A stretch of 31,289 bases of DNA from a virus (Duplodnaviria > Heunggongvirae > Uroviricota > Caudoviricetes): the IMG/VR virus record IMGVR_UViG_2734482594_000020, one strand, 5' to 3'. Under the pieces are notes generated by a model. It was not told the origin of the DNA and did no database searches. It worked only from the letters and a program-made list of their open reading frames with translations. Below are positions 1 to 16,749 of this stretch, in pieces. The stretch's first letter is position 1; the number at the start of each line of letters is the position of its first letter. The position numbers and the translations under genes were made by a program.

Positions 1-573
1 ATGTTTTGCGAAGAAAAAGTAGCTCAAATGGCTGCATACCTACTTCTTAAGCGAGGTGGGCGCATGGCATATCTGAAATTGATGAAGTTGCTCTATCTGT
101 CTAACCGCCAGTCGATTTTGAAGCATGGCAGGATGATCGGCGAAGATAGCCTTTACTCTATGAAATTTGGACCAGTCATGTCGAATACGCTGAACTTGAT
201 TCGCGGTAAGGCTGAAGGCATTGGTGACTACTGGTACAACTTGATAGAGACGAACGGGCATAATGTATCGTTGCGTTCAGATCCGAGGGAAATGGATGCA
301 GACGAGGTCTTTGATGAATTGAGTCGTGCAGATATCCGGATTTTAGATGAAATCTATTCTCGGTATGGGCATATGAACCGATTTGATCTCGCAAATATGA
401 CGCATTTAGAAAGCGTTTGTCCAGAGTGGCACGATCCTGGCAATTCTCGTAAGCCTATAGACCTGAAAGAAATGCTGATCAGTGAGGGTAAAAGCGAGGA
501 TGAGGCTAATCGCATAATTGGCAAAATGGAAGAATCTCAGAAACTTAAGGAATTTTCTTTGCAATTATCATGA
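1..573 (+). CDS. Panacea-domain (DUF4065, GepA/SocA-like) protein, putative antitoxin-type component; N-terminus may be cut by the window edge
   Basis: 190-aa ORF with the 'KLMKLLYL' and 'FGPV' motifs I associate with COG3600/DUF4065 proteins; stop overlaps the start of the next ORF (ATGA at 570-573); region looks AT-richer than the phage backbone by eye. Confidence 0.55.
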   Translation: MFCEEKVAQMAAYLLLKRGGRMAYLKLMKLLYLSNRQSILKHGRMIGEDSLYSMKFGPVMSNTLNLIRGKAEGIGDYWYNLIETNGHNVSLRSDPREMDADEVFDELSRADIRILDEIYSRYGHMNRFDLANMTHLESVCPEWHDPGNSRKPIDLKEMLISEGKSEDEANRIIGKMEESQKLKEFSLQLS

Positions 574-989
574 CGGATTATCAGCCATACAGGAAAGGAA
601 CTGTGCTTGCCCCAACTGGGCCATGCAATCATCTTCATGTGATTTGTAATGATCCTGTTTATTACCCCGTTAACGATTGTTATTGTGTTTTAGTTGTTAA
701 TATTTCTAGTATCAAGGATGGTGTCCCCCACGATCCGTCTTGCGTCTTGAATTCTGGTGATCATCGCTTTATCAAGCATCCAAGTTATGTTGTTTACGCT
801 GAAGCTATAATTTGGCGAGTGGATAACATGGTTAGAAAGCAGCGATCGGGTGAGATTTCTGTTCATGATGATATGCCAGAAGCTACATTCAATAGAATTC
901 TGGACGGTTTTGATATCTCTGATGAAGTTACGCCAAAGAACCTTAAATTTAAAAATAAATATTGCGTATCATCTATTGATGATGAGTAA
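570..989 (+). CDS. hypothetical 139-aa protein, candidate toxin/effector partner of the Panacea-domain gene
   Basis: ORF translationally coupled (ATGA overlap) to the upstream gene; AT-rich; no family recognised by eye. Confidence 0.45.
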   Translation: MTDYQPYRKGTVLAPTGPCNHLHVICNDPVYYPVNDCYCVLVVNISSIKDGVPHDPSCVLNSGDHRFIKHPSYVVYAEAIIWRVDNMVRKQRSGEISVHDDMPEATFNRILDGFDISDEVTPKNLKFKNKYCVSSIDDE

Positions 990-1028
990 ACAACAGGAAT
1001 TGTTTCGGTATAACTTCAGGAGTTTTCT

Positions 1029-1202
1029 ATGGAAGATCAAAAAGCAACCAAGCCACAGGTTAAGTTCGACACAATGAAAGCATTCGCAGGTATGGGTGCT
1101 GCTGTTGAAGTTCTGATGAAGGCTGCTCCTAATGCGTTCACTCACGCTACTGTCTCTGGTAAAGAGCAGCAGGGTAAGCTTCGTCGTCGCAAAGCAGCAT
1201 GA
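1029..1202 (+). CDS. small hypothetical protein (57 aa)
   Basis: ATG at 1029 preceded by AGGAG (1017-1021) with a 7-nt spacer; ends TGA 1200-1202 just before a strong terminator; below the ORF-track size cut-off. Confidence 0.35.
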   Translation: MEDQKATKPQVKFDTMKAFAGMGAAVEVLMKAAPNAFTHATVSGKEQQGKLRRRKAA

Positions 1203-1221
1203 TCATAGCTGGTGCTTTTTG

Positions 1222-1250
1222 AAAACCCGCCTTTAGGCGGGTTTTTTATT
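1222..1250. terminator. bidirectional rho-independent terminator between convergent operons
   Basis: Perfect hairpin AAAACCCGCC-ttta-GGCGGGTTTT followed by a T-run on + and, via the A-run, on the minus strand; lies between the + cassette and the minus-strand early operon. Confidence 0.7.
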
Positions 1251-1531
1251 TAGTGATGTTCTTTGCCCTTCTGTTTGCTTGTTCTGACCTGTTCCCACTC
1301 GATACGTCCTTCTTCTCGTCTTTTGTCTATGTATTCCGCAAGATCCTGAATATTGATGCAACGTTTTGCTTTTTGTGATGTGCCGATGCGATATGTTGGA
1401 ACGGGCAACTTACAAGCGTTTGCTTTTGCTTCTGCCGTGGCTGGACTCATGCCAAAGTACTTTTGGCTAACTGCTGAGAGTTCAATGTTAGGGGTATTGA
1501 ATTCAGCCATCAGTAAAAACAAGGTGTTCAT
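1250..1531 (-). CDS. PrtN-family / excisionase-like small DNA-binding protein
   Basis: Start 'MNTLFLL...' matches my recollection of PrtN-family proteins; ATG at 1531 preceded by GGAGAAA on the minus strand; last gene of the early-left operon. Confidence 0.5.
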   Translation of the reverse strand: MNTLFLLMAEFNTPNIELSAVSQKYFGMSPATAEAKANACKLPVPTYRIGTSQKAKRCINIQDLAEYIDKRREEGRIEWEQVRTSKQKGKEHH

Positions 1532-1567
1532 AATTTTCTCCATCAAAACCGGCTGCACCCGGGAAAA

Positions 1568-2140
1568 TCATAATTCTGTGCTGGTGGCAGGAATTAATTT
1601 CTGCCAGATAGCGGAAACATATTTTGCCTGATGACGGGCATCAGCCAGGGCGTTGTGCCGTTCGCCATCGAAAGGCATGTCCATTTTGGGGTCGAATCCG
1701 ATGGAACGCCCAAGCGTAACGATCGTGCGTACATCGTGGTCATTCCAGTATGCCCACGGGCAGATTTGTCCTGCTCGCTCATAAGCTCCACGTAAAATTA
1801 CGTTGTCGAAGGTGGCTCCGTTACCCCAGACTTTTAAATATTTCGTATTGTCTGCGTGCCGGTTAATGAAATGATTTAGTTCTGAGAGAGCATCGCTGAT
1901 CGACAAAGTATCATCAATACAGATTGCAGCTCGTGCTTCAGGGCTTTGTTTCAACCACCACAGGATGGTATCGCCGTCAGGTGTAGCTCCTTGCTTCATA
2001 GCACTGTCTAGGCTGACAACCGCATAGAATTCTTGTCCGATGTCTCCGGTTTCTGGAGTGAAGAACACCGCGCCAATGGAAACGATCGGTGCATCCTTAT
2101 TTTTCCCCATCGTCTCAAGGTCGATCATTAAGTTGTTCAT
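1568..2140 (-). CDS. DnaQ-like (DEDDh) 3'-5' exonuclease
   Basis: 'MIDLETMG' (Exo I motif DxE), 'WGNGATFD' and 'HNALADA' (Exo III H-x4-D) motifs; strong RBS AGGAGGTG before the ATG at 2140. Confidence 0.7.
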   Translation of the reverse strand: MNNLMIDLETMGKNKDAPIVSIGAVFFTPETGDIGQEFYAVVSLDSAMKQGATPDGDTILWWLKQSPEARAAICIDDTLSISDALSELNHFINRHADNTKYLKVWGNGATFDNVILRGAYERAGQICPWAYWNDHDVRTIVTLGRSIGFDPKMDMPFDGERHNALADARHQAKYVSAIWQKLIPATSTEL

Positions 2141-2688
2141 CACTTCACCTCCTGCGGCGGTTCCGGTAGCGGCATCCAGTGAGTTGCTTGCTCAATACCA
2201 TTACCCGGCTTAATCGTTGCTTCTCCTCGCCGGAATGTGCTTCCTGTATAGCGTGCGGAGCATATTAGCGGTTCAACCAGATAGCTATCGAAATTCACCG
2301 AAATAAGCACGTTCTGGTTCTTTTCAGGCATCCGCTCACTACAGCTTATCCAACCATCCGGAGTTACCGGAGAGTTGCCATTTATATCGAAGTTTGGCTC
2401 TGCGTCCTGAACTAGGAGGATGTAACCATTCTTGGCAGTATCAAGTTCTAACGCCTCGGTGACGGTACCGAAATAGCGATTACCTAAATCCGCATCACAA
2501 GTGCTTACATCAATGGAAACCTCCATGCCTTCGATTAATTCTGGCAAGTTGTAAGTTTGGCTTACATGTTCTGCTCCCAGTGATGCCAGTGCAATCCGTG
2601 CCACTTCCATTTGTTCGCCACGGGTAAGCCCGTTATCAAGCGGATTTTTAATGAATAATTCGATACGTTCTTTGGTAATAGTGGTCAT
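2140..2688 (-). CDS. DUF551-domain phage protein
   Basis: C-terminal 'ATHWMPLPEPP' signature typical of DUF551; position in the early-left operon. Confidence 0.6.
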   Translation of the reverse strand: MTTITKERIELFIKNPLDNGLTRGEQMEVARIALASLGAEHVSQTYNLPELIEGMEVSIDVSTCDADLGNRYFGTVTEALELDTAKNGYILLVQDAEPNFDINGNSPVTPDGWISCSERMPEKNQNVLISVNFDSYLVEPLICSARYTGSTFRRGEATIKPGNGIEQATHWMPLPEPPQEVK

Positions 2689-2883: not shown

Positions 2884-3387
2884 TCACTCTCCTTTGATAC
2901 GAATGCCCGCGGCGTGTGGCACATTAACTTCCACGATGCGCACTGTTGGTTTGTACATCTCAATCGCTGTCAGCCAGTCAGCTCCTGTCATGCGCTTTTC
3001 CGCATCGCCATTAGTCCACTGAACCGGTACACCAATAGCCTTCATCGCGATTTCTATTTCCCCGGCAATGGCGCTTTTCCCGCAACCAGTAAAACCAGAG
3101 ACAACGACAAGAACTTCACCTTTGGCTGGTTTTATTTCCCGTGCTTCCAGTTCTGCAATGCGTTTGCTTTGGGCTTCTCGTTCATCCAACAGCGCCTGCA
3201 CTACTTCAGGGTTGAAAGCAGCAGCAAGACGGCTGGCGGTATAGTTAATACCCTCGTTGCGAGCCTCAGCACGTACTTCATCGAATTTACGCACCAGATA
3301 CTCAGCATTTGTTTCATTCACTTTCAGATCTCGTGGTACACATTTCCCGCGAAGAAACCCTTCCATTTCGAAAACATTCATGCGCAT
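2884..3387 (-). CDS. hypothetical early protein with a Walker-A-like motif (VVVSGFTGCGKS)
   Basis: 167-aa ORF; start overlaps the stop of the upstream gene; GxxGxGKS after a hydrophobic strand but only about 60 residues follow. Confidence 0.5.
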   Translation of the reverse strand: MRMNVFEMEGFLRGKCVPRDLKVNETNAEYLVRKFDEVRAEARNEGINYTASRLAAAFNPEVVQALLDEREAQSKRIAELEAREIKPAKGEVLVVVSGFTGCGKSAIAGEIEIAMKAIGVPVQWTNGDAEKRMTGADWLTAIEMYKPTVRIVEVNVPHAAGIRIKGE

Positions 3388-3914
3388 TTGCGTAACTCCG
3401 ATAAATCGTTAAAACGTTCCATAAACATCCCGTAGGCATGACCCGGTGCCAGTGGAATCACGTTGAACATCTCTGTTGCCGGGATGCCTTCCAGTACAGG
3501 CCAGAAAGAGCCATCATCAAGCCCGAGATCGCGGCGTTCGGTTGCCAGCATGATGAGATCGGCATATTTCACGGGTGTACTCATAACTGGGGGTAACCCG
3601 TATTTCTCACGGATTACGGCGTCTATTTTTTCTTCCATCCGTTTATAGTCAGGAAGAAGGCGTTTCAGTGGTGCGGGAATGTCCTGGCAATACGCTTCTG
3701 TTGCATCATGCATTAACGCTTCAAAAGCAAATTCCTGCGGCACCAGCTGGCTGCAAAGAACCGCATGTTGGGCGACGCTGTAGAAGTGCGAAAGATGACC
3801 GGCAAAGCGACAGATATTTGAAAGGGAAACCGCGATATCGTTAATATCGATGTCGTCTTTATTTATCTTGTCATAATAAAAATGCTTCCCGGAAAAAGTT
3901 TTAATAAATGACAT
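3378..3914 (-). CDS. HD-domain phosphohydrolase (YfdR-like)
   Basis: 'FAGHLSHFYSVAQHA' and 'LMHDATEAY' His/Asp motifs of the HD superfamily; ATG at 3914 with GGAG 9 nt upstream. Confidence 0.65.
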   Translation of the reverse strand: MSFIKTFSGKHFYYDKINKDDIDINDIAVSLSNICRFAGHLSHFYSVAQHAVLCSQLVPQEFAFEALMHDATEAYCQDIPAPLKRLLPDYKRMEEKIDAVIREKYGLPPVMSTPVKYADLIMLATERRDLGLDDGSFWPVLEGIPATEMFNVIPLAPGHAYGMFMERFNDLSELRKCA

Positions 3915-4041
3915 TTTGTTCTCCACGTATATGCACTGCACCGCGCTGAATTCTGGTAAAAGGAAGCCCTCACCATCCGGTGATTATTGAGTTAATTACG
4001 TTTCCATAAATGCCCCCGCAGGGGCATTTGCAGTAATGAAA

Positions 4042-13918: not shown

Positions 13919-14365
13919 TTAAGGTTTTAATTCATCAAGACGTTGTTGGATAGTGTTTTTGCTTGCGTTGTCTGTTATAGCCATTTGTTGTACTTGCCCC
14001 ATTGCCATTTGAGTTTCCATCCACATATCGGCCCACACTTTTGTATCGTTATTAACTTGAGCGATAGTAAATCTGACTTTTGATACCGGGGTTGTTGAAT
14101 AGGCATTGCCGATTAACATTTGTCCAAAAACAGCAGACCCGCCTTCCAGTTCTTTACCACATATAACACTGCTGTTATCCGCGTTGTAAATTATCAACCC
14201 TCTACTATTGCAGTAATTCACAAGGGCATCTTTGACTTTATCTTTTGTCGTATTTTGATAAACCCCCTCAGGTTTTCCTGATTGAGTTTTCTTTATCAAT
14301 GGTACGGAAGAAGTACAACCTGAAATGATAGTTGCGCTAAGTAATAGTACAGTCATTTTATTCAT
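13919..14365 (-). CDS. lipoprotein (antisense moron between Q and the late genes)
   Basis: Signal peptide with lipobox 'IISGC'; AT-rich; own promoter candidate on the minus strand (-35 TTGATT, -10 AATAAT around 14400-14430). Confidence 0.6.
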   Translation of the reverse strand: MNKMTVLLLSATIISGCTSSVPLIKKTQSGKPEGVYQNTTKDKVKDALVNYCNSRGLIIYNADNSSVICGKELEGGSAVFGQMLIGNAYSTTPVSKVRFTIAQVNNDTKVWADMWMETQMAMGQVQQMAITDNASKNTIQQRLDELKP

Positions 14366-14989: not shown

Positions 14990-16042
14990 ATGAAAAATAC
15001 TGTAAAAATAAACAGTGTTGATTTAATCAACGCTGATTGCCTGCATTTTATTCAGTCCCTGCCTGATAACTCCATTGATCTGATTGTTACCGATCCGCCG
15101 TACTTCAAAGTGAAGCCCAACGGCTGGGACAATCAGTGGAAAGGGGACGAAGATTACCTGAAGTGGCTGGACCACTGTCTGGCCCAGTTCTGGCGGGTAC
15201 TGAAACCAGCCGGAAGCCTTTACCTGTTCTGTGGGCATCGCCTGGCATCTGATATTGAGATCATGATGCGTGAACGTTTCAACGTGCTTAACCATATCAT
15301 CTGGGCGAAGCCGTCCGGACGTTGGAATGGGTGTAATAAAGAAAGTCTGCGTGCATATTTTCCTGCCACAGAGCGCGTTCTGTTTGCTGAACATTACCAG
15401 GGGCCATATCGCGGCAAAAGTGACGGCTATGCGGCAAAAGAAAGGGAACTCAAACAGCACATAATGGCACCGCTGATTTCGTATTTCAGGGATGCTCGTG
15501 CCGAACTGGGTATAACGGCAAAACAAATTGCCGAAGCCACAGGTAAGAAAAATATGGTTTCCCACTGGTTTGGTGCCAGTCAGTGGCAGTTGCCGAATGA
15601 GGCTGACTATCGGAAGTTACAGGCACTGTTTTCCCGTATAGCGGCAGAGAAGTTTCAGGAACAACAACTGGAACAACCACACCACCAGCTGGTGGCATCT
15701 TATGATTCACTGAATCGCAAATATTCTGAATTGCTGGATGAGTTTAAATCTCTCCGGCGCTATTTCTCCGTATCAGTCTCCGTGCCTTATACCGATGTCT
15801 GGATGCATAAACCCGTTCAGTTCTACCCGGGGAAACATCCGTGTGAGAAACCGGCGGATATGCTCAGGCAAATAATCAATGCCAGTAGTCGACCTGGTGA
15901 TCTGGTTGCTGATTTTTTTATGGGATCCGGTTCCACAATAAAAGCAGCAATGGCGCTGGGGCGTCGGGCCTTAGGTGTTGAGCTTGAGTCAGAGCGGTTT
16001 AATCAGACAGTGAAAGAGATAAACGAGCTGGTGGGGAAATAA
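14990..16042 (+). CDS. orphan DNA methyltransferase (N6-adenine/N4-cytosine class, DPPY motif)
   Basis: 'LIVTDPPYF' catalytic motif near the N-terminus and C-terminal 'FFMGSGST' AdoMet-binding motif; no restriction partner nearby. Confidence 0.7.
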
Positions 16043-16411: not shown

Positions 16412-16749
16412 NNNNNNNNNNNNNNNNNNNNNNNNNNNNNNNNNNNNNNNNNNNNNNNNNNNNNNNNNNNNNNNNNNNNNNNNNNNNNNNNNNNNNNNNN
16501 NNNNNNNNNNNNNNNNNNNNNNNNNNNNNNNNNNNNNNNNNNNNNNNNNNNNNNNNNNNNNNNNNNNNNNNNNNNNNNNNNNNNNNNNNNNNNNNNNNNN
16601 NNNNNNNNNNNNNNNNNNNNNNNNNNNNNNNNNNNNNNNNNNNNNNNNNNNNNNNNNNNNNNNNNNNNNNNNNNNNNNNNNNNNNNNNNNNNNNNNNNNN
16701 NNNNNNNNNNNNNNNNNNNNNNNNNNNNNNNNNNNNNNNNNNNNNNNNN
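16412..16749. other. 338-nt run of N (assembly gap or masked sequence)
   Basis: Direct observation; removes the endolysin body and the Rz start. Confidence 1.

Follow-up and report, generated by a model that had tools for sequence, protein, structure and literature searches.

The closest described relatives of the system reported here are the PanAT toxin-antitoxin (TA) modules, in which the antitoxin, PanA, carries the domain DUF4065. Kurata et al. 2022 (PNAS 119:e2102212119, PMC8832971) surveyed the gene neighbourhoods of DUF4065, named the domain Panacea and described 88 clusters of toxins (PanT). The toxins of cluster T6 were predicted by HHpred to be MazF/PemK/EndoA-like, and the T6 representative, from Pseudomonas moraviensis, was toxic in E. 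coli, was neutralised by its PanA and co-purified with it, and specifically inhibited protein synthesis, as did the MazF control. The T6 rows in the available part of Dataset S1 of that study place the antitoxin first, mostly with overlaps of -4 or -1, and come from Proteus vulgaris, Pluralibacter gergoviae, Pantoea septica LMG 5345, Yersiniaceae bacterium 2016Iso4, Photorhabdus, Halomonas, Pseudomonas and others. Ernits et al. 2023 (PMC10440598) reported that stand-alone Panacea antitoxins neutralise directly and that PanAs with extra domains do so via those domains; a sensory role for Panacea was proposed, and TA networks were shown to overlap with defence systems. Here, a pair of this kind is described at the left end of a 31,289-nucleotide stretch of tailed-phage DNA (the window; IMG/VR record IMGVR_UViG_2734482594_000020, Caudoviricetes), where open reading frame (ORF) 1 is designated panA and ORF2 panT. 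Positions 1-989 very probably constitute a type II PanAT module in which PanA would bind PanT, and free PanT, a predicted MazF/Kid-type barrel, would block translation. The pair is a phage-borne member of the known cluster T6, and its toxicity, neutralisation, complex formation and translation arrest would be expected by analogy with the published experiments.

The placement of ORF2 in cluster T6 follows from its significant similarity to two toxins whose loci match rows of that cluster. The toxin of Pantoea septica LMG 5345 (L009; P0035, overlap -4) is 56% identical to ORF2 by both tblastn and BLASTP (tblastn E 2e-48), and that of Chimaeribacter coloradensis/Yersiniaceae 2016-Iso4 (L008; P0266, overlap -1) is 55% identical by tblastn and 57% by BLASTP (tblastn E 5e-49); in genome, antitoxin-toxin order and overlap, these loci equal two T6 rows in the part of Dataset S1 that was available. 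The general layout is likewise that of T6 (representative WP_083354365.1 / WP_083201923.1), with a stand-alone Panacea antitoxin first, the toxin second and an overlap of the -4/-1 kind, the toxin being of approximately 130-140 residues with no CDD or Pfam match and a MazF/PemK-like prediction, while the N-terminal MFCEEKVAQ of ORF1 is similar to MIFSEQKVAQ, with which the P. moraviensis PanA is reported to begin. As in the PanAT definition of Kurata et al., the Panacea domain scores above the Pfam gathering score and the two genes lie on the same strand within 100 nt of each other, here with a 4-nt overlap. Unlike the P. moraviensis pair, which is marked 'NotPhage' in Dataset S1, the E. coli copy is phage-borne, and this prophage copy does not appear among the rows of the part of the dataset that was available. 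ORF2 had been presented in a preliminary description of this DNA as unrecognisable and as a possible new toxin fold; it belongs instead to a PanT cluster for which a MazF-like prediction had already been published and of which a Pseudomonas member has been validated. As the toxin family is thus published and in part validated, the idea of a new fold is to be dropped.

The antitoxin half of the module is well defined. Residues 27-137 of ORF1 match PF13274 with 70.9 bits (cut-off 25.7; E 2.2e-19), so that the Panacea/DUF4065 motifs noted in the preliminary description were borne out by the hidden Markov model search, and the RefSeq entry of the protein, WP_000458584.1, is named 'Panacea domain-containing protein'. 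There is no N-terminal extra domain; in the PanA alignment the conserved core residues reach approximately residue 153, and the C-terminal tail that follows, some 35 residues long (~156-190), is variable. ORF1 is a complete gene, given that a GAGG Shine-Dalgarno sequence lies 9 nt upstream of the ATG at position 1, an in-frame stop lies 78 nt upstream (both read from the identical E. coli locus L001) and the N-terminus MFCEEKVAQM aligns to the N-termini of 41 homologues; the possibility that it is the 3' end of a larger gene, which the preliminary description had named as a ground for refutation, is thereby excluded. In a cluster look-up at 90% identity, ORF1 (190 aa) and ORF2 (139 and 128 aa) fall into one cluster of 541 sequences, which looks like a clustering artefact and is no evidence of fusion, and a 232-aa entry named 'DUF4065' (P0102) comes from a variant sequence in which a start further upstream was called.

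Given that some database records label ORF1 'SocA family protein', that SocA is the founding Panacea protein and that the Pfam domain shared by the two antitoxins is itself named SocA_Panacea, it is conceivable that the module resembles SocAB, the type VI system of Caulobacter, and that ORF1 is a proteolytic adaptor feeding the toxin to ClpXP. However, this is very improbable for three reasons: first, as a SocA equivalog ORF1 is rejected, scoring 14.4 bits with the NCBIfam model NF047745 against a cut-off of 190. Second, Kurata et al. place SocB in cluster T10, not in T6 with the present toxin. Third, the stable PanA:PanT complexes reported in the same study, the T6 representative included, are type II behaviour. 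By analogy with those complexes, neutralisation through binding, rather than degradation through a ClpXP adaptor, would be expected of the pair in the window.

The second line of evidence is the strict pairing of the two genes. Species-representative genomes yielded 43 loci with a relative 30-87% identical to ORF2, two of which (a 277-bp contig and a truncated copy) were left out of the pairing count. At every one of the 41 testable loci, drawn from different species, an ORF of 182-229 aa on the same strand stops at the toxin start or shortly upstream of it; the two genes overlap by a few bases at one extreme and are separated by about 30 nt at the other. Each of these directly upstream ORFs matches PF13274 and is homologous to ORF1 (phmmer E 5e-114 to 5e-24). 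The co-conservation that the preliminary description had put forward as a check is therefore found throughout, and residues are conserved in both PanA and PanT across the relatives. The hosts are Gamma- and Alphaproteobacteria and comprise Enterobacterales, methanotrophs, Beggiatoa-like bacteria, Rhodobacterales and Sphingomonadales; since the pairing is kept across hosts as diverse as these, panAT is inherited and transferred as a unit. Relatives also occur in temperate phages: in Yersinia YeP1-3 the pair adjoins the integrase, in Klebsiella ST13-OXA48phi12.5 it lies within the tail genes and its toxin has 43% identity to ORF2, and it is present in a Vibrio phage and in Pseudomonas phage Sirocco. 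The Sirocco homologue (OR683410.1, L052 1486-1884) is a 132-aa toxin, 48% identical, that overlaps the stop of the upstream 185-aa ORF by 1 nt; in the Sirocco record the toxin ORF is unannotated and a 44-aa ORF on the opposite strand is annotated in its place. The toxin family as a whole is large: when 1.84 billion 50%-identity representative proteins were searched with its profile, 2,688 scored E <= 1e-3 and 911 reached E <= 1e-10. All named members encountered carry the label 'hypothetical protein'.

The stop codon of ORF1 and the start codon of ORF2 share the ATGA at 570-573, as the preliminary description had noted. The start of ORF2 is called differently between records: PGAP/RefSeq places it at GTG 603, giving 128 aa (WP_014640052.1; L001 6603-6989), and phage records use ATG 570. 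The upstream start is favoured, since residues 1-11 (MTxYxPYRKGT, with an invariant G10) are conserved throughout the family and run into strand 1 of the structural model, and this supports the view that the RefSeq start of the E. coli toxin is 11 codons too late. The sole match of ORF2 in sequence searches of PHROG, Pfam, NCBIfam, PADLOC and the PDB was phrog_19071, of unknown function; ICMT, DapC, IgG and MS2 coat were rejected as relatives, being sub-threshold noise in the Pfam, NCBIfam, PADLOC and PDB sequence searches. The AlphaFold2 model (mean confidence, pLDDT, 89.6) has a MazF/Kid/CcdB-type fold with the SH3-like barrel and C-terminal helix that define the MazF/PemK family, and the top 43 Foldseek matches to it are all MazF/Kid. 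As modelled, the PanT fold is of the MazF/Kid type and is not the undescribed fold that had been proposed.

Comparison with MazEF and Kid-Kis (PemIK) indicates a shared organisation, in that the antitoxin gene comes first and the genes are translationally coupled. By eye, two motifs of ORF2 seem to echo those of MazF/Kid: the start of strand 1, basic-Gly-x-hydrophobic (RKGTVL in ORF2, KRGDVY in MazF/Kid), and VVN-I-S-S, which may correspond to VVP-I/V-T-S. Nevertheless, the antitoxin here is a Panacea protein and not of the AbrB/MazE or Kis type, and the PanT model has approximately 30 additional C-terminal residues, predicted to form two more helices, that MazF lacks.

A number of observations weigh against the reading of ORF2 as a MazF-like toxin of an active module. 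Family members down to about 26% identity share the invariant residues H21, C58, H65, S72, Y76, G113 and S117 and the near-invariants D55, G63 and F67, a set of His/His/Cys/Asp/Ser/Tyr in place of the canonical Arg/Thr pair of MazF, and since these invariants differ in kind from those of MazF there is room for a different chemistry. Neither ORF2 nor any of 34 family members matches PF02452 (PemK_toxin); a profile built from 34 diverse members found no relative in the PDB or Pfam and no MazF of the PDB; and hhalign, in which the family profile was compared with a small MazF/Kid/EndoA alignment of three sequences, gave a probability of 0.3%, with an alignment that covers the C-terminal helix alone. 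The proposed homology of PanT and MazF would thus have as its basis the predicted fold and the published HHpred result of Kurata et al., the sequence tests made here giving it no support. Furthermore, the link between ORF2 and the tested P. moraviensis toxin runs through the published cluster membership; the Pseudomonas members found in cluster look-ups were P. aeruginosa and Pseudomonas sp. KK4, and P. moraviensis was not among them. A promoter scan upstream of ORF1 gave one promoter-like site, which is not above chance (3 found versus 4.7 expected). Finally, 8 of the 25 PanTs tested by Kurata et al. were non-toxic in E. coli.

Two alternatives bear on these observations. With the conserved residues and the sequence tests as described, the module could be a PanAT module whose toxin is not a ribonuclease, such as a CcdB-like gyrase poison or a toxin with another target (tRNA, rRNA or protein); set against the Foldseek matches, which are all MazF/Kid, and the specific inhibition of protein synthesis by the T6 representative, this is considered unlikely. 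It is a shade less likely still that the two genes are conserved neighbours that do not form a working TA system in E. coli, either because the partner is non-toxic or because the cargo of the prophage is decaying. The non-toxic PanTs of Kurata et al., and the failure of some PanAs in that study to neutralise, are consistent with this, as is the rarity of the pair in E. coli, bases 1-1000 being found in 208 of 5,426 complete genomes. However, both ORFs are intact in 206 of these 208 carriers, strict pairing is seen in genomes with toxins at 30-87% identity to ORF2, both PanA and PanT have conserved residues, and a validated TA pair lies within the T6 cluster.

A type II PanAT module is therefore retained as the preferred explanation, and of the readings offered in the preliminary description the TA reading is the best one. 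The two genes would be expressed from one mRNA, from which PanA would be made first and PanT through translational coupling via the ATGA overlap. PanA would neutralise PanT through direct protein-protein binding, by way of either its globular domain or the variable C-terminal tail, and PanT, once free, would most likely arrest growth by a block of translation; it would probably do so by cutting RNA as an endoribonuclease, a chemistry that, together with the catalytic residues, is inferred. The E. coli copy is presumed to be active in the same way. In its biological role the module may serve, for example, prophage addiction, or abortive-infection defence in which Panacea would act as the sensor of the trigger.

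The coordinates of the module and of its immediate neighbours are collected in Table 1; the three plus-strand ORFs, convergent with the minus-strand xis-like gene, are all present where the preliminary description had drawn them, as a three-gene cassette. The module itself has two genes. ORF3 was considered as a third component and rejected, since it is missing from other panAT loci (tblastn found it at none of the 43 loci of other genomes, so that it is not co-conserved with the pair) and is kept in phage mEp460, which lacks panAT. In mEp460, similarity to the window starts at 1016, just before the ORF3 ribosome-binding site, and ORF3 and the xis/exonuclease block stand behind a different cargo gene. 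ORF3 is accordingly a gene of the phage backbone, although it is probably co-transcribed with the TA module.

Table 1. Features of the panAT module and its flanks in the window
Feature	Positions	Strand	Remarks
panA (ORF1), 190-aa predicted antitoxin, stand-alone Panacea (DUF4065)	1-573	+	PF13274, phrog_1281
panT (ORF2), 139-aa putative toxin, MazF/Kid/CcdB-like predicted fold, PanT cluster T6	570-989	+	
Spacer	990-1028	+	Right cargo boundary ~1016; ORF3 ribosome-binding site AGGAG 1018-1022
ORF3, 57-aa phage-backbone gene of unknown function	1029-1202	+	phrog_2741 E 8e-36
Terminator hairpin	1221-1246	both	Between ORF3 stop (1202) and convergent xis-like gene stop (1250)
xis-like excisionase gene, end of early-left operon	1250-1558	-	PrtN family, PF11112 / phrog_1300

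Transcription of the cassette would run convergently to the early-left operon and end at the hairpin between them. On the plus strand this hairpin is a canonical intrinsic terminator, with an 11-bp stem, a U6AUUU tail and a folding energy of -21.7 kcal/mol (z -3.5), and no equally good fold was obtained from 200 shuffles. The minus-strand stem also forms (-18.1 kcal/mol, z -4.9), but the U tract there is a weak UUUUC, so the bidirectional action that had been proposed is only partly supported. At the opposite end, the cassette lies outside the early-left operon and is oriented inward from attL, with the truncated 5' end of the host gene dusA immediately upstream of it. In the E. coli genome NZ_AP022098, the prophage end adjoins this 5' fragment of dusA (tRNA-dihydrouridine synthase), which lies downstream of zur and a DUF2713 gene, and 253 nt separate the end of the fragment from the start of ORF1 on the same strand. 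Given that the dusA 5' end points into the prophage and that no plus-strand terminator was predicted between the dusA fragment and ORF1 (L001 5643-6000 region), expression in the lysogen is possibly provided by read-through from the host dusA promoter.

The cassette sits in a lambdoid E. coli prophage. Bases 1-1600 of the window match Escherichia phage SKA5 at 100% identity and phage Lys8385Vzw at 99.1%, and this whole 1.6 kb is present, as prophage, in 193 complete E. coli genomes. The carriers of bases 1-1000 are all chromosomal, full length in 206 of the 208. The integrase gene lies outside the window; in the records of SKA5 and Lys8385Vzw it is found approximately 450 bp upstream of ORF1, across attP, which places the cassette between attP and the xis-like gene. 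A family of integrases that targets dusA is known. The composition of the cassette also sets it apart, as had been observed before: positions 1-1250 have 42.1% G+C against 50.3% in the remaining window, and at 38.6% ORF2 falls among the lowest 4% of 420-bp windows.

Sibling lambdoid phages hold other cargo at the same position and in the same orientation, directly upstream of the same xis/exonuclease block, and the earlier idea of an integrase-proximal hotspot is therefore correct. Phages phiSTEC1575-Stx2k (L049 308-1352) and 1720a-02 (L051 906-1454) carry a 157-aa Panacea protein of only 20% identity to ORF1; its 182-aa partner has no similarity to ORF2 and gives only weak membrane-protein-like matches. 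PhiR40_1 (L050 222-1212) carries a YafO-toxin pair, in which the 179-aa upstream gene has no Pfam match, and in mEp460 (L047 2784-3317) the cargo is an orphan gene of 177 aa. The cargo at the attP(dusA)-xis site is predominantly TA-like, and panAT is a swappable cargo, or 'moron', of the prophage that moves as a unit.

This setting bears on whether the pair is primarily an anti-phage abortive-infection system of the prophage, in which Panacea would sense an infecting phage and release or activate the MazF-fold toxin. The position in a cargo hotspot beside attP and the integrase, where sibling phages carry other TA pairs, the carriage by temperate phages of several genera, and the sensor proposal and TA/defence overlap of Ernits et al. 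2023 are all in its favour, and an anti-phage role of panAT is plausible. As the primary function of the pair, however, it is held to be possible rather than likely: no PADLOC model matches either protein (PADLOC-DB 2.0 gave no match at E <= 1 for ORF1, ORF2 or ORF3), the literature yielded neither a plaque assay for a T6 PanAT pair nor a phage-defence test of the T6 PanT family, and a simple addiction or stabilisation module would also account for these facts. Such a role would be layered on the TA mechanism and would not be a different mechanism. A more specific form of the idea, that T6 PanTs are a distinct offshoot of the MazF fold with a His/His/Cys/Asp set and perhaps another RNA target, acting in prophages as abortive-infection effectors released by Panacea, is doubtful.

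Elsewhere in the window, the early-left operon contains, at 1568-2143 (minus strand), a gene for an Rv2179c-like protein of 3'-5' exoribonuclease fold (PF16473, E 1e-75), the product of which is labelled variously in phage records as exonuclease or 'exodeoxyribonuclease VIII'. The ORF at 3378-3941 (minus strand) is presumably the gene annotated as a YfdR-like HD 5'-deoxynucleotidase in the matching records L001 and L002; both genes are usual in this phage group. A 148-aa ORF at 13919-14365 (minus strand), with a lipoprotein-type signal (LLSATIISGC), low G+C (~37%) and an orientation opposite to its neighbours, looks from its sequence like another moron, and the DPPY motif of the adjoining 350-aa ORF (14990-16042) suggests a DNA methyltransferase. 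A dip to 25% G+C at 16.5-17 kb was considered as a second AT-rich island and rejected, being masked sequence (338 N at 16412-16749) that falls inside the lysis region.

In summary, the main value of the analysis is a correction, in that a gene that could not be recognised from its sequence sits in a published toxin family. The T6 PanT family is large and has no Pfam, NCBIfam or PADLOC model, and thousands of genes would be better annotated if it had a profile and a name. Furthermore, the attP(dusA)-xis site provides a clean natural example of the swapping of TA cargo, two unrelated PanAT lineages included, and is a convenient place to ask whether Panacea modules protect lysogens from other phages.

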